64,000 nt of DNA from Thermodesulfobacteriota bacterium (GCA_965205855.1 OZ242184.1:886570-950569); one strand, 5' to 3'; shown: positions 3,415 through 53,232, counted from the stretch's first letter. The notes: generated by a model not told the origin, from the sequence alone. A program made the numbers and translations.

Positions 3415-4622
3415 GCGCTGCAAAGTTAAAAAAAAATTCTCCCGTTTCGGTTCCAGGGTTTCTGTTCAGTTCGCTTTCGTGCGGAATAAAAAAAGGCGGA
3501 AAGCCCGATCTCGCGCTTATCTATGCGGAGAAACCCGCGGTCACGGCGGCGATATTCACAAAAAACAGACTCAAGGCCGCTCCGGTTCTTCTGGGAATGA
3601 AGCGCGTAAAACAGGGAAAATGCCAAGCGCTTTTGATAAACAGCGGACATGCGAACGCGATAACCGGAAAGGAAGGCGGCAAAGCGGCGGAATTGACCAC
3701 ACGTGCTCTCGCGGGCAAATTAAAAATTCCCCCCGGCCTTGTCATACCTTCGTCAACGGGACTGATTGGCGGAAGGTTTCCTTCCGGAAAAATTGTAAAA
3801 GCGGTTCCGCGCCTGATTTCACAACTTTCCGCAAGCGGAGCAGACAAAACGGCGCGCGCGATAATGACAACCGACCGGTTTTCAAAAATCTCTTCAAGAA
3901 AAATTAAAATCGGCGGACTTGCGGGAACCGTCTGCGCAATTGGAAAAGGCGCGGGGATGATTGCGCCTGACATGGCGACAATGCTTTGTTTTGTTCTGAC
4001 CGACATAAATATTTCAAAAACTTTCTCCGGAAAAATATTGCGAAAAGCCGCCGATGGCTCATTCAACCGCATAATTGTGGACGGCGATATGTCAACAAAC
4101 GATTCGGTGTTTCTTCTTTCAAGCGGAGAGCTGGGAAACAAAACCCTCGCGCCCGAAAGCACGGACAGCAAACGTTTTGACAAAGCCGTTTGCGAGGTGT
4201 GTTTTGACATCGCGCAAATGATAGTCAGGGACGGCGAAGGGGCGACAAAGACCGCGCGTATTGAAGTTGAAGGAGCAAAAAATGACCGTGATGCGGATAA
4301 AGTCGCGAGGGCTGTGGGTGGGTCTGTCCTTGTAAAATGCGCGCTTTTCGGAGAAGACCCTAATTTTGGCAGATTTGCTGCGGCTGCGGGGAGGTCCGGA
4401 GCGAATTTCAATCCCGCAAAAATGGATATTTTTATCGGCGCACTGAGGGTTGTAAGCGGCGGAAAAGAAATGACAAATGCTGAAAAAAAAGCCGCGGAAA
4501 TAATGAAAAAGGATGATTTGATAATAAAAATCCGCCTTTTCGAAGGAAAAGGAAAAGCGTTTACGCTTGTGTCAGACCTATCACTTGACTATGTGAAACT
4601 GAACTCGGAATATAGGAGTTAA
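3411..4622 (+). CDS. argJ: Bifunctional glutamate N-acetyltransferase / amino-acid acetyltransferase ArgJ.
   Basis: It carries the ArgJ fold signature with the autoprocessing ATML site (PDMATMLCFV), at 403 aa. Confidence 0.85.
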   Translation: MSAAKLKKNSPVSVPGFLFSSLSCGIKKGGKPDLALIYAEKPAVTAAIFTKNRLKAAPVLLGMKRVKQGKCQALLINSGHANAITGKEGGKAAELTTRALAGKLKIPPGLVIPSSTGLIGGRFPSGKIVKAVPRLISQLSASGADKTARAIMTTDRFSKISSRKIKIGGLAGTVCAIGKGAGMIAPDMATMLCFVLTDINISKTFSGKILRKAADGSFNRIIVDGDMSTNDSVFLLSSGELGNKTLAPESTDSKRFDKAVCEVCFDIAQMIVRDGEGATKTARIEVEGAKNDRDADKVARAVGGSVLVKCALFGEDPNFGRFAAAAGRSGANFNPAKMDIFIGALRVVSGGKEMTNAEKKAAEIMKKDDLIIKIRLFEGKGKAFTLVSDLSLDYVKLNSEYRS

Positions 4623-5751: not shown

Positions 5752-6837
5752 CTACACATTGAAACGAAAAAGCATAATATCCCCGTCACAAACTTCATAG
5801 CCTTTTCCCTCGGCTCTCATTTTTCCGGCTTCCTTCGCCGCCGATTCGGAACCGGCGACGATGAAATCTTCATATTTTATTGTTTCCGCCCTTATAAAAC
5901 CTTTTTCAAAATCGGAATGAATAACTCCCGCCGCCGCAGGCGCCTTTGTTCCCAGTTTTATAGTCCACGCCTTCACCTCCTTGGGTCCGGCGGTGAAATA
6001 GGTTATAAGTCCCAAGCCTTTGTAAGCCGCTTGCACAAGTTTTTCAAGTCCTGTTCTGTCAATGCCCATTTCATTGAAGAACTCTTCCCTTTCTTCAAGG
6101 TCAAGCCCTGATATTTCTTCTTCTATTTTCGCGCAGATGTTCACTACGGGGCTTGAGGTTTTCTGTGCGTGAAGTTCCACCTGTTTTGAAAATTCGGACT
6201 CCCGCGCCACATCATCAATATTGCACACATACAAAACCGGCTTCGCGGTCAGCAAAAAAAGTTGCTGTTCTTTCTCAATCTCAAGCCAATCACAATGGCC
6301 GCGGACGGAATTGCCGTCTTCAATAAACTCTCTCAGTTTTCTAACATCAGACAGCTGTTTTTTTATGTCTTTGTCGCCGCTTTTGGCTTGCGTAGCAAGT
6401 TTCTGTTCTTTTTTTTCCAGAGTTTCAAGATCTTTCAATATCAGTTCGGTCTCAATTGTCTCAATGTCACGCCCGGGATTCAAAACGCCGTCAACATGCG
6501 TAACATCACCGTCCTCAAAACATCGGACGACATGAACTATTAAATCCATCTCGCGTATATGAGAAAGAAAAGCGTTGCCCTTGCCCTTGCCCTCGGACGC
6601 GCCCTTCACAATTCCCGCGATGTCAACAAACTCGATAAAAGCCGGAACCATTTTTTCGGGTTTCACAAATGACTGTATTTTTTCAAGCCGCTCGTCAGGA
6701 ACCGCAGCAACACCGATGTTCGGCTCTATTGTGCAGAAAGGGAAGTTTGCTGCTTCCGCGTTTCCGTTAGAAAGAGAGTTGAAAAGTGTTGATTTGCCCA
6801 CATTGGGAAGCCCTACCACGCCGCATTTGAGTCCCAT
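5752..6837 (-). CDS. ychF: Ribosome-binding ATPase YchF (Obg-like).
   Basis: Walker A (GLPNVGKSTLFN) and a TGS C-terminal domain are present. I trimmed the start to MGLKCG at 6837 because the longer track ORF overlaps tRNA-His. Confidence 0.85.
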   Translation of the reverse strand: MGLKCGVVGLPNVGKSTLFNSLSNGNAEAANFPFCTIEPNIGVAAVPDERLEKIQSFVKPEKMVPAFIEFVDIAGIVKGASEGKGKGNAFLSHIREMDLIVHVVRCFEDGDVTHVDGVLNPGRDIETIETELILKDLETLEKKEQKLATQAKSGDKDIKKQLSDVRKLREFIEDGNSVRGHCDWLEIEKEQQLFLLTAKPVLYVCNIDDVARESEFSKQVELHAQKTSSPVVNICAKIEEEISGLDLEEREEFFNEMGIDRTGLEKLVQAAYKGLGLITYFTAGPKEVKAWTIKLGTKAPAAAGVIHSDFEKGFIRAETIKYEDFIVAGSESAAKEAGKMRAEGKGYEVCDGDIMLFRFNV

Positions 6838-16245: not shown

Positions 16246-17512
16246 AAAAGACCCCTTTAAATACCTGGATTCGCTTGAACAACACACCGTAAAGCCCGGG
16301 CTTGAAAGAATCTCAAACGTTCTGAAAGCGGAAGGAAACCCGCATCTTGCCCTGAATACGGTTCTCATAGCCGGGACAAATGGAAAAACCTCCACCGCAT
16401 CAATACTGGCGGAAATTCTTACGGCGGGCGGTTTTTCAATTGGGCTTTACACTTCCCCGCATCTCATACGGCTCGGGGAAAGAATAAAAATATCCGGACG
16501 GGAAATTCCGATTTCCGTTCTTGGAGAATTGCTTTGCCGGGCACGCCGCCTTTCGGAAAACCTGAACCTTCAGATGAGTTATTTTGAAACACTTACCGCC
16601 GCCGCTTTTATTTATTTTAAGGAAAAAAGAGTTGATGCCGCGGTTTTTGAAGTTGGAATGGGAGGAAGGTGGGACGCGGTAAATGTCGCGCAACCTGTGG
16701 TGTCGGCAATTACCAATATCTCAATGGACCATATGCGGTATCTGGGAAGTACATTGGAAGAGATTGCTCTGGAAAAGGCGGGAATAATAAAACGGGAAAC
16801 TCCTCTTGTTACCGCTGCCGGAGAAGTGGCCCTTGGCGTGATTGAAAAAAAATGTGAAGAAAAACGCGCTCCGATTTTCAGAAACGAAAAAGAGTTTTTC
16901 TGCAGTGAAACTGAAAATGGAGCTTTTAATTACGCCGGACCACGGTGGACGGTGAATAACATCCGACCGGAAATAAAGGGAAGTTTTCAGCGGGCAAACG
17001 CCTGCGTCGCGCTTGCCTGTGCAGAGGTAATAGACCGTCTCAAAGGTTTTAACATTCCACCGGAGCGGGTGAGAAAAGCTGTCGGACAAACCCGTGTCGT
17101 TGGGAGAATGGAGTATGCGCGGACAAATCCTCCCTTCATTATAGACGGCGCTCACAATCCCGCATCGGCGCGGCACCTTGTGGAATCTCTCGGGGAACTT
17201 CACCGGGGGCTGCGGTTTGTTTTTGTCATAGCAATGTCCGGAGACAAAGACCACGCGGAATTTATAAAACAGATAGCACCGGTCTGCTTGCGTCTGATAC
17301 TCACCCGAAGTCCGGACGGGAAAAGCGCGCAACCGGAAACTTTGAGAAAATTCGCGCCGACAAACACTGAAACAGAAATAGCGGCAACACCCGAACGCGC
17401 GCTTGAAAAAGCCCGTCAAACCGCCCTGCCCTGTTGCGTAACCGGCTCTTTGTACTTTGCCGGAGAGGTGAAAAAACTAATTTCACGACCCGATTTTTCA
17501 ATCGAGGTTTAG
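16226..17512 (+). CDS. folC: Bifunctional folylpolyglutamate synthase / dihydrofolate synthase.
   Basis: It has the Mur-ligase-type P-loop (GTNGKTST) and an FPGS C-terminal domain. Confidence 0.8.
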   Translation: MSFLKVKKDPFKYLDSLEQHTVKPGLERISNVLKAEGNPHLALNTVLIAGTNGKTSTASILAEILTAGGFSIGLYTSPHLIRLGERIKISGREIPISVLGELLCRARRLSENLNLQMSYFETLTAAAFIYFKEKRVDAAVFEVGMGGRWDAVNVAQPVVSAITNISMDHMRYLGSTLEEIALEKAGIIKRETPLVTAAGEVALGVIEKKCEEKRAPIFRNEKEFFCSETENGAFNYAGPRWTVNNIRPEIKGSFQRANACVALACAEVIDRLKGFNIPPERVRKAVGQTRVVGRMEYARTNPPFIIDGAHNPASARHLVESLGELHRGLRFVFVIAMSGDKDHAEFIKQIAPVCLRLILTRSPDGKSAQPETLRKFAPTNTETEIAATPERALEKARQTALPCCVTGSLYFAGEVKKLISRPDFSIEV

Positions 17513-18256
17513 AAATTGACACATCTTGGAAACCCTGTTGAACGTCAGGTCTCCCAGCTCGTGTTCAAGTTCGTTTTTTCCGTATTTTGTTGTGAGAATT
17601 ATTTTCCCCACCGCGCTGTGTCTTGCCAAAATCAATCTTTCAAGAATACCCTTTTCCCAGTCGGTAAGACCGCGCCCTCCGAACCCAACGCCATCAACCA
17701 CAAGCAACTCGACATTGAGAAACCGGCGGAGAAAGGCACGTTCCGAAACCCCTTCACCTCTGTCCTTTATTTGAAGTATAAAATCACCGAAATCTTGAAA
17801 CAGACAGTCTATGCCCTGTTTGAGTGTCTGATCGGCGACCGTGGCGGCGGCAAGATAGGTTTTTCCGCGTCCCGGGGGGCCTGTGAGTACAAAACCCTTT
17901 GCCACCGGATAGGAGTCTATAAAACCACGAATGTAGCTGCAGGCCAAAGCTGACTCCTTTGTGCCCAAATCTTCTACTTTGGCAGACACCATAGCAGACG
18001 GTATGCGCGCTTTGTTGTATTTTTTAATATTGCCGTAAAGCGCCGAGCATTGATCACAGGGAACAACGCACCTGTAGTTATCTTTGTCTCTTTGAACCAT
18101 AACGCCCCGTCCTTCGCATTGTTCGCAATTTTTTTTGCATTCACAAACACTTGCGTGCGCGAAAGGTTTTTCCTCGCCCAGGATAAAACCTCCCCCGCCG
18201 CATCTATCGCACGTCTTCACTTTCCATCCCGTTTGCCGAAGAAAACAGCCCGTCAA
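17498..18256 (-). CDS. DnaI/DnaC-like AAA+ helicase-loader homolog with an N-terminal Cys-rich zinc module.
   Basis: It has two CxxCxGxG motifs (CDRCGGGG, CEQCEGRG) plus further Cys pairs, Walker A (GPPGRGKTYLA) and an atypical Walker B (LLVVDGVG). Confidence 0.6.
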   Translation of the reverse strand: MTGCFLRQTGWKVKTCDRCGGGGFILGEEKPFAHASVCECKKNCEQCEGRGVMVQRDKDNYRCVVPCDQCSALYGNIKKYNKARIPSAMVSAKVEDLGTKESALACSYIRGFIDSYPVAKGFVLTGPPGRGKTYLAAATVADQTLKQGIDCLFQDFGDFILQIKDRGEGVSERAFLRRFLNVELLVVDGVGFGGRGLTDWEKGILERLILARHSAVGKIILTTKYGKNELEHELGDLTFNRVSKMCQFLNLD

Positions 18257-28399: not shown

Positions 28400-30585
<2,186 letters not shown>

Positions 30586-42446: not shown

Positions 42447-42764
42447 CTACCCTTTTATACCGGTTATGCGAACCGATGTGTATCTCTGCCGGTGTCCGGC
42501 TTTAAGTCTGTATTTTTTGCGTCTTTTGAATTTAAAAACGGTAATTTTAGGTCCTTTCTTCTGAGAGACGATTTCGCCTTTAACTTCCGCTCCGTCAACA
42601 ACGGGAGTACCCACGCGCGCCTCACCCTCTCCGTCCGAAACCATAAGCACATCGGGAAATCCGATCGTGTCTCCGGGGCTACCCTCGATTTTTTCTATGT
42701 CAAGAACATCTCCGGATTTGACCAAGTACTGTCTGTTTCCTGTTCTTATTACTGCCTGCTGCAT
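42447..42764 (-). CDS. rplU: 50S ribosomal protein L21.
   Basis: It starts MQQAVIRTGNRQY and is 105 aa, lying 12 nt upstream of rpmA. Confidence 0.9.
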   Translation of the reverse strand: MQQAVIRTGNRQYLVKSGDVLDIEKIEGSPGDTIGFPDVLMVSDGEGEARVGTPVVDGAEVKGEIVSQKKGPKITVFKFKRRKKYRLKAGHRQRYTSVRITGIKG

Positions 42765-42788
42765 AAAGATTGCTCCGCTCTTGGAAGG

Positions 42789-43547
42789 TCAATTATGCCA
42801 CAAAAAGGGATGGAGTGTCAAACTATACGGCGACCGCCTGATAGTCGGGGAGTTCACCCATTGTTTTCCCTCAAGAGCGCGTCCCGTCTTCTTTTTGTTC
42901 ACACCGCCCCATTGTTTGAAGAAAAACGGAACCCCGCTTTCAACGCAGTTGTCCCTGATTTCCGTAACCCATTCCTCTTTCATCGGTCTTGCGCCGGGGC
43001 CGGACTCTCCACCGACAATGACCCAGTCTATGCCTGACAAATTGAGGTTTGGAAACGGGGCAAGCAACGGTTCAAGAGAAAGAAACTTCACGCAAGCATC
43101 GGTCTGTTTTAAAACTTCTGTACGGGAAAGATATTTCTCGGACTCTACGCTTGTTCCCATCCAGATGTTGGAAGTCCAGTGCAGGTGTTTGTTCGCCTTC
43201 ACAACCCTTTCCGGTCTTTTTGTGAGAACCTGAAAAGTGTGTTGAGATGCTTCGTTCATAACTTCAAAAACGGACATAATGAATTTTGCGGGAACATCCT
43301 TGTGGAACAAATCGCTCATTGAATTGACAAAAACTATTTTCGGTTTTTTCCATTTAAGCGGGTCTTTCAAAGTGTGTTCATGAGTGGTGAGTTTGAAACC
43401 GTTTCTGTATTTCTCCATCCCTTGAGCGTGAAGCCGCTTTGCCATCCGCTCGGCGTAGCAGTATTTGCAACCGTGGCTGATTTTTGAACAACCGGTAATG
43501 GGGTTCCATGTTGTGTGAGTCCATCCTATTTTGGAGGGTTGGGTCAT
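42789..43547 (-). CDS. Phage Gp37/Gp68 (DUF5131)-like three-Cys protein.
   Basis: Its N-terminus is [26 protein letters not shown] (C-x6-C-x2-C). The start ATG overlaps the res stop (TAATG). Confidence 0.55.
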
Positions 43548-46090
43548 TACTGTTTGTTGATAACACCGTTTATATCGTCCCGCCAGCTGTCTTCAAACAT
43601 CATCCTGAAAGTAGCGGGCGTCTTATTGATGGCCATTTCGCCTCTGTCAAGGGCGATCCTGTATGTTTTTTCAAGCGTGTCGAGCAATTTTTTCTTGTAA
43701 CTCGTATCTTCGCTGCCTTTCAGGTGGATGCCCTTTGTTTCCAGAATTAGCAGTTTTCCGTTATCTTTTCGGCAGGCCACAAAATCGGGATACACGCGCT
43801 GGCGTCGCCAGCCTTGCAGATAGTACGCTTGTCTTGCAGCTATTCTGTGCCACCAGTAGATGGCGTTGCTCTTATCCAGATAAAGCGCAAAATCCCGCTC
43901 CAGACCGTTAAAACTACTTTCATAAACAGGTTCAAAAAGGTTTTGCTGTATAGGTCTGCCATGTTCGCTCTGTAATGATCTTTCTTGACTGGAAACAAAA
44001 ACCTCGAACGACTTGCTCAATTCGTAGTCCAGTCGCTGGTCGGTCTCAAGGTGAAACCGAATCACATTCCGCCCAACCTTTTCCCGAAACACCGCTTCGG
44101 CCTCGTCGTCTATGGCCTTGTTCACGCGGCGGCTCAATTCTTCGGAAAGGTAAATTCGGTTATTCAACAATTTGCTTTCATCGTGTTTCCTGTTTTTATG
44201 TGTTTGAATAAACCCCTCCGCCATGCGCGCCGCCTGCCACGGATTGGGCACCTTGTCCACAAGCCGCCGAACAAAATAATCCACGCTCAGCCGCTTTTCG
44301 CTGTCAGGGATTTGTTCCGAAGCCTTAACCTGCCCTTGAATGTCCACCGTGGTTTTGATCTCCTGAGTGATGTCTCTATCATCCAGATTCACCGCTGCGC
44401 CCGCGTCAATGGTGTCCCAATCAATCGCGCTTAATATATCGCGGTCGTAATCAATGGGGCGCCAGGTGCGCCCCGCTTTGTGTAACACCTGCGGGAGAAA
44501 AATTTTCAATGGCCGGTATTTACCACGACGTTTGACGGTGGTCGGTTTCGGTGCATCGCCCTCGCCATGCCCGTGAACAAAATCGCCAAGCCCGGTCAGC
44601 CCTTCATTCTCCAGGCCGGCCTTCACGCCTTTGATCGCCTTGCCTACGACCTGATTATAGCAATAGATATAACACTGGTTCAGCGCATCGCCTTGTGCGA
44701 TTCTGCGTGCATGGGGTTGCCGCATCACCCGACCGACCATTTGCGTGATGGCGGTGGTTGCGGTGGTGTTATCCAGCAAGGCAAGCAGATATGCAAACGA
44801 GCAATCCCAGCCTTCTTTCAGCGCGTCTTTGGTGATAATCCAGCGCACCTCGCTTGTCTCGCTCAACAAATCCTCACCCGCAAGTTCCTTGCGTTCCGAT
44901 GATTGAATCCTGATGTGATTCTCCGGCACAGCAAGATTTTGTATCAGGTATTCGCGCGCATCCTCCGAATGAATTTTTCCTTGCCCTCTTTGTTTTGCGC
45001 CCGTTCTTTCCACCCTGACCAAAGCGATGGGTCGGATATGGCGGTTTTCCTGTTCCTGTAATTTTTGCGCCGCACTTTCAAGCTCATCCAGTTTTTCCTG
45101 TGTTTTGGCAAGCGTGTGTTCCCAGTCGGAATTGCTGAAACTGTGAATCTCTATCGGCAGTTTGATCATCTCCTCGTCCTGGAGGTCGCGGCCCGATGTG
45201 TTGACCAGGATATTGCTGATGCCGATTTTCGGCGTGGCGGACAGTTCAAGCACAAAACGGGGGTTGAGCCGGTTGACGGATTTGACAAACTCCTGGTTGT
45301 TTTGATTATTCGGTCCATATGCTTTATGCGCTTCGTCCAAAATCACCGTGGGACGAATCAGTTTCAGCACATTGATCAGGCTTTGCTTAACCCAGTCGCC
45401 GGGTGCATTTTTCTCCAGGTCGGGATGGTGTTCCGAAAGCGTTGCATTGGCCGCCGCGTCATCCTGCTCGGGAAAAAACGACATATACCCGCTGCTGTCG
45501 CGGAATATTTTGAGAAACTCCCTGTTCTTTTGCCGGTTGGCGGAGGGTAGCATCAGCAGCATAATGCAAAGATAGTTTTCGGTATCCTGTCGGGTAAAGC
45601 GGTCGGTTTTTTGCAACAATTTGACCCTGCCGCCAGACATATGTTCGAGCATCTGCCGGTAGGTATGTTCGCGGGTGTGGAACGCCTGGCGGGTCTGCTC
45701 GTAGATCGCCCGGGTCGGCACAATCCACAACACAAAGCCGGTATCCCGCTTGATCCGCTCAAGCGTGGCCACGCCCAACAGCGTCTTGCCGCCGCCGGTC
45801 GGCACCTTCAGGCAAACATGCGGGATGGGTTCGCCGGATGCCGCAGTGCGGGAAATGTAGCCGGGAACTGCCATGTCACCGTCTTGGGAAATGCCGGGGA
45901 GGATATTTTGATCTTTCAGCGCCTTCCAAGCTAAGAGGGGATAGTTTTGCAGTTCTTCAGGAATATCAATCCCCGACTCTTCAAGAGCTTTGCCCGCCTT
46001 TTCACTAGTCAGCCGCGCTTCCTTGAGCGCGTCCAGCCAGCGGTCTAACTGTTCAAGAGCTTGTTGCTGATAGTTTTTCAGGGAGAGCAT
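43547..46090 (-). CDS. res: Type III restriction enzyme Res subunit (SF2 helicase plus C-terminal nuclease).
   Basis: It has Walker A (VPTGGGKTL), DEAH (ILDEAHKA), motif VI (QMVGRVMRQ) and a C-terminal PD-(D/E)xK-like ILETKG. The start is set at MLSLKNY (46090), 1 nt after the upstream ORF stop. Confidence 0.75.
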
Positions 46091-46091
46091 A

Positions 46092-46649
46092 TCACGGATT
46101 TTTTGAGTCAGTACTGTCTGAATTATTTGGCAAATTGATGATTTCAACAGGCACATTCCTTTTACCAACTGCAAGACCGACAGCGTAGTTACGGATAATA
46201 GTTTGATCCATTTCCATATCCGCATAGCCTTGTGGATAGTACGAACCCCTTAGAATTTCCATCTGTTCTACCTTAAAATCTAGCACCTTGGCCATTGAGC
46301 TAAGCATCTCCGTGAGCAATTCCATTTGCTCCTTGCCGAGTCGTTCATAGTGCGAACGAGAATCATTTTCTTCGTTAGGCCTCTTAGCATGCGTTTCACC
46401 ATAATGCTTGCGGAGTGCTGCCCATTTTTCTATAACTTCTTTATGCTTAACAAATTCTATCTCAACCAGATTAATGGCTCCGACATAATCAGGTGATAAA
46501 CGCGCATTTCGTGTACGCATTAACGTCTTGAATATATCCATTTTTCGCGCCTTTTGTTCGCGCCATCTGTCAAGAAGACCGTTAACCCAGACAGCTGCGC
46601 AAGGACCGATTAAGATGGCTGCAATGGTGATGATAGAATATGAATTCAT
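46092..46649 (-). CDS. Membrane-anchored hypothetical protein embedded between mod and res.
   Basis: It has one N-terminal TM helix (IITIAAILIGPCAAVWVNGLL) followed by a charged helical domain. It lies 2 nt after the mod stop and 1 nt before the res start, and is visibly AT-richer than its flanks. Confidence 0.6.
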   Translation of the reverse strand: MNSYSIITIAAILIGPCAAVWVNGLLDRWREQKARKMDIFKTLMRTRNARLSPDYVGAINLVEIEFVKHKEVIEKWAALRKHYGETHAKRPNEENDSRSHYERLGKEQMELLTEMLSSMAKVLDFKVEQMEILRGSYYPQGYADMEMDQTIIRNYAVGLAVGKRNVPVEIINLPNNSDSTDSKNP

Positions 46650-46651
46650 GT

Positions 46652-48208
46652 TTATCTTATACCCTCATATGGTAATTGGGCAAAAGTTATCCCCATCTCG
46701 GTTAATGCTTTTTGTCCCATGAATTTGTGAGTGGCGAACACCACCGCGGTTTTCTTTTTTGCCTTGGCCTGTTTGGCGATGCGTTCGGCGCGGGTGCTGT
46801 TCAAAGCGGAATCCGCACTGCGCAGAAAATCAAGGTTCGGCTCGTAGATCAGGTAAAACATTTTGTCACCTGCTTCATAAAATAAACCGTCTTTGCCACG
46901 CCTTGTTTTCGGGTTGAGTTTATGCGGCGATTGTCCGCTTGCGGTATAGATCAGATGGCGGGCAAAGGTTTCATAGCCCGGCAGGTTCCTGCCGGTGAGC
47001 ATTTTTTCAATGCTGATTTCATCGCCCAGTGTGCAATAGGCAAAACTGCCGCCCAGTCCGTTTTTTAGGTTCTCATCCTTTGCTTTTGGTATGCCCTTTA
47101 TCACACGGCGAACGCGCTCGGCGGTGATTTTGTCGGCGTAGTCTTCGCATTCCACCAAGATAAATTTGCGGTTGCCGCCGTCTTCCTTGTTCAGCGCAAG
47201 CACGGCGTGGGCAGTGGTGCCGGAACCGGCGAAGGAGTCGAGGATAATGGCGTTTTTTGTCGTTGCCAGTTGTAAAATCTTTTTCACAAGGGAAATTGGT
47301 TTGGGGTTTTGGAACTGATTAGAACCAAACACCGTCCTCAACTCGATTGTGCCGTTGGTTGTTGTACCTACATCATCCCACCAAGTGCTAGGCGTTAACC
47401 CCCTTCGGCGTGCCTCTGACAAAAAACGTTTGCGCTGAGGTCTGGAACTATTTCTCTTTCCGAATACGATTCTATTGTCTGCAAGAAGCTCCTCAAATTT
47501 GTTCAAATCGTTTTTCCAGCAATTACCTTCAGTGGGGTAAAATATTTCTTTTGTTTTAGGGTTTCTTATCGGATACATCTGATTAGGTCGAACCCCACCA
47601 GCCTCAAATGGATCCGCCTTCCATGGGCCTCTCGGATCATTATCAGGATTTTTGAATCCTTCTAAAATGGCAGGAAGTTTGAAATCTTTTCTAATGGTTT
47701 TTAATACATTCAGTTGTTTAGCATAAGCTATATTATGAGTGTGTGATATTGATACTAATGCAGGATTTGTAATTGATTTTGTGCTATGCCACACAAAATC
47801 TGCAACAAAATTCTCCTCCCCAAAAATCTCATCCATGACCATCCGCAGGCGGTGCTGTTCATTGTCGTCGATGGAAATAAAAATTACGCCATCTTCGGCC
47901 AGCAATTCTCTTAACAACTGCAATCTTGGCCACATCATGCACAGCCATTTGTCGTGCCGCTCCAGGTCTTCGCCATCCACCGGACTTTTGCCTTTCAGCC
48001 ACGCCTTCATCATCGGGCTGTTGACATTGTCGTTATAGACCCATTTCTCATTGCCGGTGTTGTAGGGCGGGTCGATGTAAATGCAGTTGACGCGGCTGGC
48101 ATAGCGCGGCAGCAACGCCTTGAGCGCGTGCAGATTGTCGCCGTGGATAATCAGATTGTCATCAAGGGAAGGGTTACCCCCCCATTTTTCGCTGAAAGAG
48201 ATTTTTTA
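46652..48208 (-). pseudogene. mod: Type III R-M Mod subunit (beta-class N6-adenine methyltransferase) with its 5' end disrupted at a G7 tract; candidate phase-variable gene in the OFF state.
   Basis: DPPY (motif IV) precedes ILDSFAGSGTTAHAV (motif I). Mod-like sequence (DDNLIIHGDNLHALKA) continues upstream of the annotated TTG (48115) to a TAA at about 48208, with no ATG. An upstream ATG ORF (48291..48151) is in another frame and crosses the G7 tract at about 48177-48183. Confidence 0.7.
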
Positions 48209-48284
48209 GTGTCTATCTCAAGTGTCCTGGACGGAACAGTCAGGTGGTGCGCATAAATGAGTTGCTTCCCTTTGAAATCAATTG

Positions 48285-48448
48285 TCGGCATTGAAAACCC
48301 CGTAAATCAGTTTGATATTGGCTTTGAAGATACCCGATTTACTCCCCCAACCTAAACCCCTCAACCTCCCGATGCACCGCCCCTTCCCGTCTCAATTCAC
48401 TCTCCATCAAACAAACTCTTTCAGAAGCAAAACCAAGTTCAAACTGCG
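48285..48448. repeat. Direct repeat copy A of the thpR 3'-terminal sequence (about 164 nt).
   Basis: It is near-identical to copy B and about 90% identical to copy C over tcagtttgatattggctttgaa...caaactgcg. It abuts the mod upstream ATG on one side and the IS fragment on the other. Confidence 0.8.
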
Positions 48449-48768
48449 CCCGCGGTGACATGGAGAACCGGATCAAGGATCAGCAGTTGGATTTGTTTGC
48501 GGATCGCACCTCTTGTCACCGCTGGTGGCCCAACCAGTGCCGGCAGTTGCTGTCAGGGTTGGCTTACACGTTGATTGAGGGATTGCGGCGCCTTGCACTA
48601 CAGGGCACCGAACTGGCCAAAGCCAGTCCTCACAGGATCAGGCTGACACTGCTTAAAATCGGTGCCGTGATCATCCGCAACACGCGCCGCATCCGCCTAC
48701 TGATGAGCAGTGCTTATCCCCATCAGGCGTTGTTCCGCACGGCAGCCTATCGGCTCAACTCCCCATAA
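48449..48768 (+). mobile_element. C-terminal fragment (about 100 aa) of an IS1380-like DDE transposase; IS remnant.
   Basis: ENRIKDQQLDLFADRTSCHRWWPNQ ... LAYTL ... RLTLLKIGA matches the conserved C-terminus of IS1380-family transposases. There is no N-terminal catalytic part, and it starts exactly where repeat A ends. Confidence 0.55.
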
Positions 48769-48959
48769 ACCCAACCCAGTGCTGCCCCGGCATGTTGATA
48801 AACAATGGGGGTAGGGGGAGTTGCGCCCGAAATCTGTGAACAACGAAAGAATTGATCAAAGAACAGGCAACTGCATCATATGATGCATCGACAGGGATGG
48901 CGCTACCGAAAAATCGACCACCACCGCTTCACTCATGAAATATCCGGGATAGTCTCGCT

Positions 48960-50099
48960 TTATTTTCGGATGAGAAACAGAAATTCTTTATTCGGATCGC
49001 TGGATTCCCGCAACCACTCATTTGTCCATTTCATGGCGGCCATCACATTTTTTTTATACTCAATTTTTGCGCTATCCACAATTTCTCCGTTACGCGTTAT
49101 CACCTCGTTTAATTCCTCCGCGGTTGCTCGTCCACCGGAACTGTAAGAGAGCAAGATCCATCGGCAAGGAGTTTCCTTCAGCAAACGCTCTATGGCTTCC
49201 ACCACAACCAATCGTCCTGATTTGCTTCTACGAAATTCCTCGAACACTGAAGTCGCCACTTTATCGGATGTGTCTTTTCTGCGGAGGGACTTGCCAAATA
49301 GCACGGGATGATCATTTTTACATATGGTCGTCCACAAATGATAATATGAAGCGTACCGAACCCTTGAAGGTGGCATTTTTTCATTGTTTGACCCATACGG
49401 AGGATCAAAATAAGCAAGATCGGCGTCCGCTTCGGGAAGTACCTTAAAAACATCACCACACAGCACCGTGTTTTCGATTTCATTTTTCCACAACCGTGGC
49501 ACTTTCAATTGTAAATTTTTGAATGAACGCGGCGACCAATCTTTTAAATAAGAAACAAAATGACCAAGAGTACTGTCTATCTCATTCAACCCTAAAATCA
49601 GGCTTGTCAATGCCACACTTTTGGAAACGTCATCCAGCATCAAGGCATCGATCTCTCTCCTGATTGCATCAAGTTTTCTTGTATTTTTTTTCTGCCAAGG
49701 CTTTTTGGTTCCATCCTTCTGAATAGCATTATGGCAAGTTCCAGAGCGAACATCACCACCGTAATTCTCAGTAAACCATCCGTCTTCCGGAGGAAGCGAA
49801 TTTAAATGATCAATAAGAGGTTGGTATATTTTCGGGTTTTTTAAGTTTTTCAAATAGCACGTGGCAAAAATTCTTGACCATTCGGAAATATCATTTGATA
49901 CCACGCGATATCCTGCTTGTGCAAAAGATTGACTTACTCTGGTGGAGCCTGAAAAACCGTCAAAAATGCTTTTTGCTCCGGTCTGTTTTGACAGATTAAA
50001 AATATGTGGAAGCAGTTTCAGTTTTGAGCCTGCGTAATTGATGCCTTCGGTTTTTGGAACATCAATCCAATCACGAAAAATTTGAACTTGCCCTTGCAT
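48960..50099 (-). CDS. D12-class (Dam-family) N6-adenine DNA methyltransferase.
   Basis: It has the N-terminal INYAGSKLKLLP motif (compare Dam WAGGK..LL) and FDPPYGS (motif IV), at 379 aa. Confidence 0.7.
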   Translation of the reverse strand: MQGQVQIFRDWIDVPKTEGINYAGSKLKLLPHIFNLSKQTGAKSIFDGFSGSTRVSQSFAQAGYRVVSNDISEWSRIFATCYLKNLKNPKIYQPLIDHLNSLPPEDGWFTENYGGDVRSGTCHNAIQKDGTKKPWQKKNTRKLDAIRREIDALMLDDVSKSVALTSLILGLNEIDSTLGHFVSYLKDWSPRSFKNLQLKVPRLWKNEIENTVLCGDVFKVLPEADADLAYFDPPYGSNNEKMPPSRVRYASYYHLWTTICKNDHPVLFGKSLRRKDTSDKVATSVFEEFRRSKSGRLVVVEAIERLLKETPCRWILLSYSSGGRATAEELNEVITRNGEIVDSAKIEYKKNVMAAMKWTNEWLRESSDPNKEFLFLIRK

Positions 50100-50776
50100 T
50101 ATGTAACTTTAAAGCGGGAAGCCTGCTTGAGTCTAACAATATCATCTTTCACTTTTGCAAGAGCCTCATTCTGGCCGAAATCAGAAGAAACAAGCGCGTG
50201 AGAAAATAGTTGGACCAAGATAGGATTGTGAGAATAATCAACCCATCCATTGGTTATGCTATCAAAATAGTTTAAACCACTTTTTGTATGAGTCCAAAGC
50301 CCTCGCTGGAGGGCATTGGCGGTTGCGCTTCCATAACGCACCTCGCAAATATAAGAATCGCTTGCATCGTAGAAACGATATACTGGGTGCTTTCTACCTT
50401 TCTTTTTTGTTTCTTTTACTATTTTCACCGTTTCAGTTTCAGCGCGGTGGTAATCGAAGACAAGAATATTACACTGTCGATTTTTTTCGTCATAAATTAA
50501 TGGCAAAACATTTACATTGTAAAAATCCGAGAAAGCGGGGTCGGCAAGCACTCGTTGTACATTTTTCTTGCCCACTATTTCATCCCCCTCTTGTGCCAAT
50601 CTCGGAAACATTTTGAAATTCTTGTCGGTTGAAAGTTGAAGGGGACCATCACCATACGCTTTGATGCTAACAGGAAATTCAGCTTCGGTTACTTCATTTA
50701 TTATTTTGATGTCTTCTTCCCGAGATTTGGCTCTGTATAAATCTTTGCCAACATGGATCGAGCGAAAATCATACAT
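50099..50776 (-). CDS. Candidate Type II restriction endonuclease (C-terminal part?), paired with the Dam-like methyltransferase.
   Basis: Its stop overlaps the methyltransferase start. The 225-aa product has no recognised motif, and a 69-aa ORF abuts it 1 nt upstream in another frame. Confidence 0.35.
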   Translation of the reverse strand: MYDFRSIHVGKDLYRAKSREEDIKIINEVTEAEFPVSIKAYGDGPLQLSTDKNFKMFPRLAQEGDEIVGKKNVQRVLADPAFSDFYNVNVLPLIYDEKNRQCNILVFDYHRAETETVKIVKETKKKGRKHPVYRFYDASDSYICEVRYGSATANALQRGLWTHTKSGLNYFDSITNGWVDYSHNPILVQLFSHALVSSDFGQNEALAKVKDDIVRLKQASRFKVT

Positions 50777-50777
50777 A

Positions 50778-50987
50778 CTACTGGTTGATAAATTCGGCTA
50801 TGGCGATTTCTGCCAAATCTCCATGTGTTTTATTTCCAATGAGGCGCATGGTGAAAATGTTGCTCAATGTCAAGATTATTAAATCCGGGCGTTTACTCGC
50901 AAGAAGCTTCAATCTCGAGATGAAATCTTTATATGGATCATTTTTCATGTTTTTCGTTTGATGCCTCTGTTTTGGTATTTTTATCAA
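50778..50987 (-). CDS. Small ORF, possibly the frameshifted N-terminal part of the downstream restriction gene.
   Basis: The 69-aa product ends 1 nt before the ATG of the 225-aa ORF. Confidence 0.3.
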   Translation of the reverse strand: MIKIPKQRHQTKNMKNDPYKDFISRLKLLASKRPDLIILTLSNIFTMRLIGNKTHGDLAEIAIAEFINQ

Positions 50988-51105
50988 CCTTCATTTTTCA
51001 GATCGTCGCATGAGCTTGGGTTGAGATGATTCGGTAGCGTCATCGAGAATTCATGTGTATCAATTGCTGTTCAAGTTTAACCCGTTTTGCCTGTAAATCA
51101 CCCAA

Positions 51106-51335
51106 TCGGCATTGAAAACCCCGTAAATCAGTTTGATATTGGCTTTGAAGATACCCGATTTACTCCCCCAACCTAAACCCCTCAACCTCCCGATGCACCG
51201 CCCCTTCCCGTCTCAATTCACTCTCCATCAAACAAACTCTTTCAGAAGCAAAACCAAGTTCAAACTGCGGCAATTCGGGTAGCTTCATCCTTTTTTTTAT
51301 CCACCCTATCGTAACGTGCGACATAAAATCCCGTT
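51106..51335. repeat. Direct repeat copy B of the thpR 3'-terminal sequence (about 230 nt).
   Basis: It is identical to copy A over about 164 nt and continues to match copy C through ...ataaaatcccgtt. Confidence 0.8.
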
Positions 51336-51461
51336 ATTGTAGGCTGCTGTTATGTGTAACGGAGTTTCATATGAAAATTCTCTGCTATGAGCAATTGTGG
51401 TCACTGGGATTCTCACAATTGCTGGTTGTGCGAGCCAGCCAGATTTGACAATGACTCAGTA

Positions 51462-51872
51462 TTAGTGCTCGCCCTCTTGATTAATTTGTTTCCACAAACT
51501 GCCGATAGCAAGTAGTGCTGGAATAATAAGTAGCACCACTACAATTGGCACACTTGATTTAATTACCTCTACATTTAATGCATATACGGTAATAACATCG
51601 GATATGTCCGTCAATAATCTGACAATTAATATCGCTAAAAGTGCTTTATGAGACTTAAGGAATAAAGCAACTATTATCCCTATAACTACCATTACATTTC
51701 TTGTAATGTAAAGTTGTGTAACATAATTCAATTCGGAAACCTCTGGTATGAAACCACTTGGGTTCATGGCCGTACCAGCTGAGAAGAAAAGCACTAAAGA
51801 TATTTGTATTAGAACAATGACCCATACCCAAATAGGTAAGAATCCATTGGTTTGACCATTTTTGTAATTCAT
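51462..51872 (-). CDS. Hypothetical 4-TM membrane protein (AT-rich cargo gene).
   Basis: It has four hydrophobic segments and low GC relative to the flanks, and sits between repeat copies C and B. Confidence 0.5.
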   Translation of the reverse strand: MNYKNGQTNGFLPIWVWVIVLIQISLVLFFSAGTAMNPSGFIPEVSELNYVTQLYITRNVMVVIGIIVALFLKSHKALLAILIVRLLTDISDVITVYALNVEVIKSSVPIVVVLLIIPALLAIGSLWKQINQEGEH

Positions 51873-52050
51873 ATTTGCAACCTCTTATTTTTACCTAATT
51901 ATCACTTAAACTAAGCAGAGTTTCAAGATATTTTCCGGCATCGGCGGCGTTTTGAGCGCTGCATAAGCAAGTCTCGGTATTAACTCGCACAAATCAAAGC
52001 GACGATTGAAACGATACTGAAATTCTGACAAATAACGCTGTGCGTATTTT

Positions 52051-52258
52051 TCAGTTTGATATTGGCTTTGAAAATACCCGATTTACTCCCCCAACCTAAA
52101 ACCCTCAACCTCCCGATGCACCGCCCCTTCTCGTCTCAATTCACTCTCCATCAAACAAACCCTGTCAGAAACAAACTCAAGTTTAAACTGCGGCAATTCG
52201 GGCAGTTTTATCCTTTTTCTTATCCGCCCTATCGTAATGTGTGGTATAAAATCCCGTT
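52051..52258. repeat. Repeat copy C: the resident 3' end of thpR plus about 30 nt downstream, the source sequence of copies A and B.
   Basis: It overlaps thpR codons for ...HITIGRIRKRIKLPELPQFKLEFVSDRVCLMESELRREGAVHREVEGFRLGE*. Confidence 0.8.
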
Positions 52259-52664
52259 TCTCCGGCTCAAAACCGATTGTCTCAAGTTTTGAGTCAATCT
52301 CGTCCTTGAGACTGAAAAACGCGTCCCCGGATTCCGCAATCACCGCAAGCGTCTGCGTATAACGGCGGAGTATAAGCGCCTCAACCCCGTCCGTTGTGAT
52401 GTCGAGCGGCACAAACCGCTTGCAACAACTTTCAATAACCCCGCACAGTTCGGGAATCAATTCGCGGCGCGTCTCTCCGAGAAACCTTAAAGTAATATGG
52501 AATTTTTCAGACAGCTCCCAACGCACATGGCGGAGCGAGCGTATTGCGGCGGAACGGGATTTTATCACCCTTTTTGCTTTTTCGGGAACTTCAAGAGAAA
52601 TAAAAAGCCGGACGGTAGCGCTGTCAACTCTCAAGCTCAACATTCCAGTATGAGGCATCAACAA
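52083..52664 (-). CDS. thpR: RNA 2',3'-cyclic phosphodiesterase (2H family, ThpR/LigT).
   Basis: It has two HxT/S motifs (HITLRFLGE and HITIGRI), at 193 aa. Confidence 0.8.
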   Translation of the reverse strand: MLMPHTGMLSLRVDSATVRLFISLEVPEKAKRVIKSRSAAIRSLRHVRWELSEKFHITLRFLGETRRELIPELCGVIESCCKRFVPLDITTDGVEALILRRYTQTLAVIAESGDAFFSLKDEIDSKLETIGFEPEKRDFIPHITIGRIRKRIKLPELPQFKLEFVSDRVCLMESELRREGAVHREVEGFRLGE

Positions 52665-53232
52665 AACTTACAAACGGCTCCCATTCTTTGTAGCGGATTG
52701 GGTGCGCGTAAATGTTTGCAAACGGTCCCCACTGCGGTTCGGAGGGAATTGTGAGCAATTTCATCCTTGCCTGTTCGGGAGTTCTACCGCCTTTTCTGCG
52801 GTTGCACGAGCCGCAGGAGCAGACAACATTGTCCCATCTGCTTTCTCCGCCGTGCGCGCGCGGAATAACATGGTCTATCGTAAGCTCGGTTTTGGAAAAA
52901 TGCTTTCCGCAGTATTGGCATTTACCGCTGTCTCTGCGGAATATGTTGAAGCGCGTAAATCTCGGACGCTTTCTGTGAAATCCGCTGTAACGGAGCAGGA
53001 TTATAACCCTCGGCGCTTTGATGATCCTTGTAACGGTTCTCACATAGTCGCCACGCCCTCCGGCGGCAGAGGCGGCGGAAACCTCCGCCCAACTCTCAAA
53101 ATCAAAAGTCTCGTAGGTTTTTGTTACGGCTTTCGCCTCGCCGCAATAGAGCATCACAAATGCCCGTCGCAAATTGGTAACGGAAACGGGCATATAGTTT
53201 TTGTTCAAAACCAGAACCGGCGAACTCAACAT
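52624..53232 (-). CDS. HNH endonuclease.
   Basis: The HNH motif is CQYCGK ... DHVIPRAHGGESRWDNVVCSCGSCNRRKG. It overlaps the thpR start by 41 nt. Confidence 0.75.
   Translation of the reverse strand: MLSSPVLVLNKNYMPVSVTNLRRAFVMLYCGEAKAVTKTYETFDFESWAEVSAASAAGGRGDYVRTVTRIIKAPRVIILLRYSGFHRKRPRFTRFNIFRRDSGKCQYCGKHFSKTELTIDHVIPRAHGGESRWDNVVCSCGSCNRRKGGRTPEQARMKLLTIPSEPQWGPFANIYAHPIRYKEWEPFVSFVDASYWNVELES

Follow-up and report, generated by a model that had tools for sequence, protein, structure and literature searches.

Three direct copies of the thpR 3′ end and two probable insertions of foreign DNA at a variable defence locus of a Thermodesulfobacteriota bacterium

A 64,000-nucleotide (nt) stretch from a Thermodesulfobacteriota bacterium (GCA_965205855.1 OZ242184.1:886570-950569), referred to here as the window and numbered from its first letter, carries an island of defence genes between rplU and thpR, the gene for RNA 2′,3′-cyclic phosphodiesterase. 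The island is organised by three direct copies of the 3′ end of thpR, designated A, B and C, which enclose two inserted segments. This arrangement probably arose through two successive illegitimate, microhomology-mediated insertions of foreign DNA, each with a long target duplication, at a permissive defence hotspot; a probability of roughly 0.55 is attached to this reading. The original prediction, made from the sequence alone, had described the same array and attributed it to repeated site-specific integration or to an integron-like cassette array. It is partly supported: the architecture was right while the mechanism was wrong.

The repeats were located by a repeat search and by self-BLAST of the island, with the 64-kb window as the scope. 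All three copies lie on the minus strand, where the order is HNH, thpR (ending in copy C), insert 1, copy B, insert 2, copy A, the Type III mod gene, DUF6680, res, DUF5131, rplU, rpmA and alaS. Copy C (52051..52258) is the functional 3′ end of thpR. The thpR stop codon TAA lies at 52083-85, and this copy therefore consists of the last 175 coding nt and 32 nt downstream, in agreement with the genuine end plus about 30 nt described before. It is read as the left member of a 208-nt duplication that came with the insertion of mem136, the gene in insert 1. Copy B (51106..51335) is a displaced thpR 3′ fragment which starts at thpR nt 406 and carries on for 54 nt into the native sequence downstream; the 164 nt at its end form the left member of the duplication that belongs to insert 2. 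Copy A (48285..48448) is the right member of that 164-nt duplication, extending from thpR nt 472 to +54 and running on into native downstream sequence. In the self-BLAST, copy A (48285-48448) matches copy B (51106-51269) at all 164 of 164 positions (E = 3e-81), copy B (51128-51335) matches copy C (52051-52258) at 190 of 208 (91.3%, E = 1e-80), and copy A (48307-48448) matches copy C (52051-52192) at 133 of 142 (93.7%, E = 8e-57). The claim that A and B are nearly identical to each other and about 90% identical to C is thereby made precise. A and B extend a further 22 nt downstream in common, which C does not have. No thpR-end copy beyond these three was found in the window by either search. 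The observation of three copies is correct and lies well beyond chance; a separate cargo module does stand 3′ of each copy on the minus strand, and the array is indeed delimited by thpR ends with an intact thpR end retained.

Insert 2 (48449..51105, minus strand, 2,657 nt) is foreign DNA whose origin and extent can be read directly. It contains a fragment of valS (valS′), a restriction-like (R-like) gene, a methyltransferase gene (M) and an inverted remnant of an IS1380-family insertion sequence (IS). The donor-like loci L029, L030 and L031 were found through P0410, a protein in the same 90% cluster as the R-like protein, on contigs of 2.47 and 0.32 Mb in ENA data set ERZ25069296. From 51114 down to 48950, the window is 98.7% identical over 2,165 nt to positions 5835-7998 of L029 (and likewise to L031), with 28 differences including a 1-nt insertion. 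The order in L029 is valS, R, M and a convergent gene for UDP-glucose dehydrogenase (udg), and the GC content is 58.8% for this locus against 40.8% for the restriction-modification (R-M) module. The first 75 nt of insert 2 (51105-51031, minus strand), the last 25 codons of a foreign valS, encode LGDLQAKRVKLEQQLIHMNSR*, which is the C-terminus of the valyl-tRNA synthetase (ValRS) of the L029 bacterium. Since valS is a fragment here and complete in L029, the direction of transfer was into this genome.

Similarity to L029 stops 10 nt past the stop codon of M, at the joint AAAGCGAGACTA/TCCCGGATATTTCATGAG, after which come about 180 nt of a presumed IS end and the last 102 codons of the transposase. 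This IS1380-family remnant occupies 48449-48949 and is inverted relative to the module, with its transposase open reading frame (ORF) at 48460-48768 on the plus strand (Pfam DDE_Tnp_1_4, positions 332-431 of 435). The transposase has 4,411 homologues, and no full-length IS1380 copy occurs in the window. Because both ends of insert 2 fall inside genes, namely valS and the IS transposase, it is a piece of a foreign chromosome and not an element with termini of its own. The IS1380 remnant, which abuts the thpR-proximal edge of copy A, and the foreign valS fragment, which heads the module after copy B, are two features absent from the original prediction.

The methyltransferase gene of insert 2 (50099-48960, minus strand) encodes a D12-class N6-adenine enzyme (Pfam MethyltransfD12, 1.6e-22) that is whole and differs from its L029 counterpart at 2 amino acids. 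The R-like gene (50948-50099, minus strand; 282 amino acids) is broken by an extra G at 50778, outside any homopolymer, into pieces of 68 and 225 amino acids. In L029 this gene is unbroken, so inactivation of the restriction gene seems to have followed the transfer, with the methyltransferase kept. The 282-residue protein has no match in Pfam, NCBIfam or the PDB; a restriction function is suggested by its context, in that it adjoins the methyltransferase and widely co-occurs with it.

Some further observations concern insert 2 and its donor-like locus. One 12.8-kb region (LptF/G ... valS, R, M, udg ... ileS) is found twice in a single 2.47-Mb contig, as L029 (ctg24227 260827-273675) and as L030 (same contig, 2357810-2370658), with many differences position by position; either a large duplication or the joining of two strain haplotypes in one contig would account for this. 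Roughly 100 nt ahead of the valS stop codon, the GC content of L029 falls from about 55% to some 41%, and the valS end in L029 may itself have arrived with the R-M module. An inverted repeat of 17/20 positions (48896-48915 / 51025-51044) was considered and rejected, being at chance level, with one arm derived from the IS end and the other from the valS fragment.

Insert 1 (51336..52050, minus strand, 715 nt) is made up of a 157-nt head, the mem136 gene and a 126-nt tail, and contains no R-M genes. The mem136 gene (51872-51462, minus strand, 35% GC) encodes a predicted membrane protein of 136 amino acids with no match in Pfam, NCBIfam, other family collections or solved structures. The protein has 682 homologues, and in unrelated genomes of 39-52% GC it is conserved at 72-88% amino-acid and 87-91% DNA identity, with mem136 itself at 34-40% GC. 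The copies compared, all in unrelated contexts, are 90.7% (L025, 6001-6411), 90.2% (L027, 5001-5411) and 86.8% (L026, 6001-6411) identical at the DNA level. In each case mem136 is a lone gene among unrelated neighbours, such as ilvD/rhodanese, Fic/TetR, or an IS3 remnant and DMP19. From these comparisons it looks like a very small, widely transferred gene. No more than about 21 nt ahead of the ATG belong to the conserved unit. Of the relatives only L025 has the tail, at 80% identity, while the 157-nt head (52050-51894), in which a promoter scan placed a promoter-like site at 51926-51898, has no relative among the sequences fetched. The mem136 cassette found no match among plasmids, phages and viral contigs. 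L025 also holds two 100% identical copies of a 140-nt element (4427-4566 and 6418-6557) with 19-nt terminal inverted repeats, which resembles a miniature inverted-repeat transposable element; one of these copies sits directly after the mem136 stop codon.

Junction geometry and the order of events

Three of the junctions are readable, and all of them lie in short, chance-like matches of 8/9, 4-6 and 11-13 nt. At the left junction of insert 2 (51106..51114, minus strand), recipient CAATGCCGA faces donor-like CAATCCCGA, with agreement at 8/9 positions and CCGA exact. On the recipient side, known from its preservation after copy A, the letters are ...TTTTCAATGCCGA/CAATTGATTTC, against ...GAACAATCCCGA/TTGGATGATTTAC on the donor-like side; one gives way to the other within CAATsCCGA, with a TGATTT patch a little further on. 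The right junction of insert 2 (48443..48448, minus strand) is CGCA(GT), a match of 4-6 nt found both in the thpR copy and in the IS transposase codons for (Y)-C-A. Full-length transposase homologues read ...Y-C-A-R-G-(D/E)-M-E-N at this point, and TGCG, or ACTGCG with the Tyr codon TAC, at 48443-48448 is part of both the IS and the thpR copy (AAACTGCGGC in B). A donor that carries the M-IS1380 joint should have the predicted sequence TA(C/T)TGCGCCCGCGGTGAC at its right junction. For insert 1, the right junction (51323..51335, minus strand) is AACGGGATTTT(AT), a match of 11-13 nt common to the end of the mem136 tail and to thpR codons 136-140, so that the last 11-13 nt of the tail are simultaneously the first bases of copy B. 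The tail in L025 also ends ...ACAATAACGGGATTTT (6689-6699), with no thpR nearby. The fourth junction, on the left of insert 1, is unreadable because the 157-nt head has no relative among the sequences fetched.

A separate observation concerns the 13-mer AACGGGATTTTAT of the insert 1 junction (52246-52258, minus strand), which recurs inverted within thpR at 52553-52565 (plus strand), about 295 nt away. With the copy in B, there are three exact copies in 1.25 kb against 0.2 expected (≤1 mismatch, whole window). The recurrence may be a coincidence of two conserved peptide motifs, IKSR and KRDFI.

The junctions of each insert are crossed. In recipient coordinates the left junction of insert 2 lies at +54 after the stop codon and the right one at thpR nt 472, 164 nt upstream of the left. 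With this geometry the 164 nt between the junctions end up flanking the insert on either side, which yields the A/B repeat with exactly its limits. It follows that the limit of copy A is itself a junction, and that copy A has been neither degraded nor truncated by the IS. Insert 1 has the same geometry, with its left junction at +32, its right junction at thpR nt 406 and a 208-nt duplication (C and B). The limits of the copies thus differ between the two events (+32 vs +54; thpR nt 406 vs 472) and coincide with the junctions, which argues for target duplication and against a fixed attachment (att) site.

Divergence values bear on the order of the two insertions. For insert 2 the divergence is 0% between A and B and 1.3% against L029, which makes that event very recent. 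For insert 1 it is 8.7% between C and B and 9.3% between mem136 and its L025 counterpart; these values suggest either that the event is older or else that an imported allele supplied copy C. Had both duplications formed in situ, insert 1 would be the earlier, and insert 2 would have entered behind a fragment B that was already dead.

Under the proposed mechanism, the ancestral chromosome would have carried thpR, at least 54 nt of native downstream sequence and the Type III R-M operon. In the first and older event, a 715-nt fragment with mem136 would have been joined on its left at +32 after the thpR stop codon and on its right at thpR nt 406, within the match of 11-13 nt. As the right junction lay upstream of the left, 208 nt would have been doubled into copy C, which completes thpR, and copy B, a dead fragment. 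In the second and very recent event, a 2,657-nt fragment would have been joined on its left at +54 after the B fragment and on its right at nt 472 of the thpR sequence within it, both joins falling in short matches; the 164 nt duplicated in this way would have become the tail of B and copy A, which are still identical. The donor of this fragment may have been an unrelated co-resident bacterium, or a relative of it with an IS1380 copy beside the methylase gene. Each insertion and its duplication would have taken place in one step, for example through joining to a widely staggered break or through bridging of two sister duplexes at a fork. The DNA presumably entered by uptake of free molecules, and the site was probably reused owing to its permissiveness in a compact genome.

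Several points weigh against this account. A one-step mechanism for crossed-junction insertion is hypothetical, and the presumed uptake would call for natural competence in the host. No donor sequence is available on the left of insert 1 or on the IS side of insert 2, so that two of the four junctions are only partly resolved. Neither a conspecific genome nor an empty site was found when ThpR was compared with one genome per species and HNH and ThpR were looked up as exact proteins; the state before insertion is therefore reconstructed and not observed. The divergence between B and C adds a further difficulty. Fifteen of the 18 differences lie in the first half (binomial p = 0.008), all amino-acid changes fall within the first 33 codons, and the last 25 codons are unchanged in either copy. 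Polarisation against six relatives assigns 7 derived changes to B and 7 to C, among the latter K→R, M→I and E→K at sites of the functional copy that are otherwise invariant; dN/dS, the ratio of nonsynonymous to synonymous substitution rates, is about 0.5 between the two, estimated from few sites. Judged by these equal numbers and by the non-conservative changes in the functional copy, an imported thpR allele would fit at least as well as divergence in situ. This symmetry keeps homology-anchored import as a serious rival, at least for insert 1.

The variable interval and its resident genes

The nearest relatives are labelled as metagenome-assembled genomes of Ca. Mycalebacterium or Thermodesulfobacteriota in the class Ca. 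Dadabacteria, with ThpR proteins 61-66% identical to that of the window. They have a common backbone, hisD-hisC-lgt-HNH-thpR ... (DUF5131)-rplU-rpmA-alaS. DNA similarity to one of them, L001, ends at the thpR stop codon and restarts exactly at the ATG of DUF5131 (43547), which places the right border of the variable region on a start codon; similarity to a second, L005, restarts 59 nt upstream of rplU. The interval in L001 holds an alpha/beta hydrolase, another Type III R-M system on the opposite strand and two unknown genes, and that in L005 holds Mrr, a gene for 155 amino acids and an AAA_15/AAA_21 ATPase. No thpR-end repeats are found in L001 or L005, each of which has a single thpR end and belongs to a different species from the host of the window. 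The same core flanks with differing cargo, and repeats only here, define a clade-wide variable defence hotspot in which the repeat array is peculiar to this genome. The island originally placed between rplU and thpR thus holds up as a variable one, with other defence genes in its place in L001 and L005. As a DNA pattern, the repeat had no match in metagenome and viral contigs. A ThpR family profile found matches of at most 34% identity in metagenome contigs, and so no conspecific.

The resident cargo of the hotspot is the Type III R-M operon (43547..48284, minus strand; Pfam N6_N4_Mtase, DUF6680 and ResIII). It comprises the mod ORF (48115-46652, 487 amino acids), DUF6680 (46649-46092, Pfam) and res (46225-43547, Pfam ResIII), all on the minus strand. 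The upstream ATG of mod had been placed inside copy A, an assignment that fails because in-frame stop codons intervene; the ATG lies at 48185, 100 nt past the end of copy A, and a G7 run after it leaves it one base out of the mod frame. Read from this ATG (48177-48185, minus strand), the frame terminates after 3 codons. Removal of one G from the run gives MGGNPSLDDNLIIHGDNLHALKALLPRYASRV..., in frame with the 487-residue mod ORF. The frameshift reflects a phase-variable OFF state or else a sequencing error in the homopolymer. The conserved backbone to the right of the operon (42447..43547, minus strand) consists of DUF5131 (43547-42789) and rplU (42764-42447). The res stop codon and the DUF5131 start codon share one base at 43547, and DUF5131 gives a weak match, far under the cut-off, to the model 'radical SAM mobile pair protein A'.

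On the other side, the thpR ORF (52083..52664, minus strand) matches Pfam LigT_PEase (1.6e-17) and 2_5_RNA_ligase2. Its product matches the database protein P0001 (186 amino acids) at 100%, and the likely start is therefore 52643 and not 52664. The HNH protein next to it (52624-53232, minus strand, 202 amino acids) overlaps the start of thpR by about 40 nt with the TTG start of the ORF finder and by about 20 nt with the ATG at 52643. This HNH-thpR pair is kept throughout the clade. The HNH domain scores best with IscB/Cas9-type HNH models, far below their cut-offs. Elsewhere in the window, a protein of 252 amino acids (17498-18256, minus strand) has an IstB-like (IS21 helper / DnaC-like) ATPase domain (E = 2e-11).

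Competing accounts of the array

An unlikely but serious rival to insertion by illegitimate joining is import anchored in homology. Here the module would have formed behind thpR in the same or a sister population, and would have entered either through a RecA crossover in or upstream of thpR together with one illegitimate join in the recipient thpR (homology-facilitated illegitimate recombination, HFIR), or as a circle with one thpR-end copy through a single Campbell-type crossover; alleles of the hotspot would then have been stacked instead of replaced. Copies C and B do resemble alleles that diverged under similar constraint, each having acquired 7 derived changes, none of which alters an amino acid in the last 25 codons. 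HFIR predicts microhomology at the right junctions, and the hotspot is polymorphic among relatives. In E. coli, single crossovers of circular DNA gave locus duplications of 109-950 bp more often than true HFIR did (PMC3240628). For insert 2, however, this route demands an additional, unobserved conspecific intermediate, and the microhomology of its left junction to foreign DNA calls for an illegitimate event here in any case. The 100% identity of A and B and the two gene-internal ends of the insert have a simpler explanation in a single event, and no conspecific donors were found.

Site-specific tandem accretion, in which elements targeting the thpR 3′ end brought a replacement end with them and decayed to cis-mobilizable remnants once their integrase was lost, is improbable. 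It agrees with the direct repeats of a gene 3′ end that flank each module and with the regeneration of the intact end. Replaced and displaced ends are reportedly also seen with e14 and phage 21 at icd, to which the 91% identity found here can be likened. Decay to integrase-less cis-mobilizable elements (CIMEs), as well as accretion at a gene-end att site, are documented (PMC5704250). Nevertheless, domain and family scans from 42.4 to 53.3 kb found no integrase, resolvase or intact transposase between rplU and HNH, as had already been stated for integrases in the original prediction. Among 20 further ORFs (250-460 amino acids, 1-35.5 kb), the only recombinase is a tyrosine recombinase gene about 20 kb from the island (28400-29335, minus strand, 311 amino acids; Phage_integrase and Phage_int_SAM_1), which is Xer-like by size and domains and stands beside ahcY/metK. 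Insert 2 is moreover a chromosome fragment that ends in valS and in an IS gene and is nearly identical to a non-mobile locus elsewhere; the repeat limits vary by module and coincide with microhomology junctions; relatives have the same thpR context without repeats; and searches of viral and metagenome collections gave no further instance of the repeat. Near the island there is neither a tRNA nor an Rfam family, and a terminator explanation of the repeat gained no support.

The integron-like cassette array that formed the other half of the initial mechanism, served by an integron integrase encoded elsewhere, is effectively refuted. In its favour, the conserved mem136 unit is promoterless, since its leader ahead of the ATG measures only about 21 nt. 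Against it, no integron integrase (IntI), attI site or cassette promoter (Pc) was found beside the array, and the repeats are gene fragments; together with the module tails, they fold no better than shuffled sequences (z -1.8 to +1.1) and so have no attC-like fold. By inspection, no canonical GTTRRRY/RYYYAAC pair is present at the module ends. The modules have no head or tail motif in common, and the mem136 tail of L025 does not preserve the stem seen here.

A transposon could in principle have carried part of insert 2. One-ended transposition of an ISEcp1-like member of the IS1380 family might have brought M, R and valS′, with a later rearrangement producing the duplication and truncating the IS. 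Capture of adjacent genes by ISEcp1-type elements is well known; the transposase here is read in the direction of its right end, placed at about 48949 next to the M-R-valS′ block, and the similarity to L029 stops 10 nt past the M stop codon. This course is nonetheless quite improbable. Transposition would be expected to duplicate about 5 bp in place of 164 nt, and it has no need of a match to the target such as the 8/9 match in which the far end of the block lies. The point where the IS is interrupted within its gene is also precisely the repeat limit, and the window contains no full copy. More generally, a mobile-element account of insert 2 would have to work with no integrase and with an IS1380 remnant at one end that is cut inside its gene at the junction. 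It is similarly very unlikely that the array is an artefact in which strain variants of a polymorphic hotspot were concatenated during assembly. The source is a metagenome-derived contig of 1.4 Mb, and L029 and L030 show that near-duplicate regions occur in one contig of a related data set. Concatenated alleles, however, would repeat the whole shared flanks and would not join the tail of a module to the middle of thpR, and the junction microhomologies, the truncated IS and the valS fragment are biological signatures.

Insertion of foreign DNA by illegitimate joining can also be taken one step further. In a speculative and rather doubtful extension, the thpR end would act as a capture platform that needs no recombinase: random chromosome fragments of neighbours would be fixed by crossed microhomology joins, and the long repeats would let RecA loop out, amplify or pass on the modules as homology-tagged circles. 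If true, this would be a homology-based counterpart of the integron for defence genes in a small-genome symbiont, and would represent the life cycle that Kobayashi's group proposed for R-M units and that was never seen completed.

Comparison with known systems

The closest known parallel is insertion with long target duplication (Nobusato et al., 2000, Gene 259:99; Furuta et al., 2010, Nucleic Acids Research 38:2428, PMC2853133). R-M units of all types were found with target duplications of 46-423 bp and without mobility genes, mostly in naturally competent species, and the duplications often span the stop codon, so that the target gene stays intact (Furuta et al., 2010). The locus described here is alike in its R and M unit, its repeats of the target, the absence of an integrase, the spanned stop codon and the low-GC cargo. 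In that survey, insertions were recognised by R and M homologues in the insert, an insert below 20 kb, direct repeats longer than 30 bp and a single-copy target in a related genome. Insert 2 holds a D12 methyltransferase with an R-like partner, the inserts measure 2,657 and 715 nt, and the repeats measure 164 nt (100%) and 208 nt (91.3%); the only relatives found, with a single thpR end each, are of different species and at most 66% identical in ThpR. Several features set this locus apart from the known insertions. Two tandem events occurred at one site, of which the first carries a gene that is not part of an R-M system, and insert 2 also brings a fragment of a foreign housekeeping gene and an IS remnant. 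A near-identical donor-like locus makes the junctions readable, with microhomology at both ends and in crossed order. The second duplication copies a gene fragment that was already dead, and the empty site is not observed.

How such insertions come about has been an unanswered question since 2000, as no incoming DNA had been at hand to compare them with. The donor-like locus, at 98.7% identity, shows that the insert is an arbitrary chromosome fragment with microhomology at both ends and with junctions crossed by exactly the length of the duplication. If both events took place in situ, the duplication of a dead gene fragment marks duplication as a by-product of the mechanism and not as a feature selected to save the gene. 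The locus further documents a very recent transfer of a defence module of working size between unrelated, apparently co-resident bacteria, and the reuse of one permissive site in a compact genome. With one genome and a reconstruction as its basis, it is a well-resolved example and not a new principle. Its significance would grow if population data showed that the repeats are used for excision, amplification or transfer.

Double illegitimate recombination and HFIR during DNA uptake in Acinetobacter, Streptococcus and Pseudomonas, including the short-patch form of the former (SPDIR; bioRxiv 10.1101/2023.11.22.568220), and in E. coli conjugation (PMC3240628) also use joins at microhomologies of a few to about 10 nt, and circular molecules that recombine give recipient-locus duplications of 109-950 bp (PMC3240628). 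Those are laboratory events, mostly with short patches or a long homologous anchor, whereas the inserts here are natural, of kilobase size and carry defence genes. Tandem accretion of elements and CIMEs, as in ICESt1 at fda or e14 and phage 21 at icd (PMC5704250), leads to a similar outcome only, with a regenerated gene end and displaced end fragments that remain; here there are no integrase and no fixed att limits, and the inserts are chromosome fragments with chance-like microhomology junctions. The locus finally resembles defence-island hotspots between core genes, since the cargo of the thpR-(DUF5131)-rplU interval differs in each related genome. Such hotspots are ordinarily attributed to element integration or to replacement via flanking homology, while the scars at this site show stacking by illegitimate joins. 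The thpR locus is thus a new example of a known, poorly understood route by which defence genes enter a genome.

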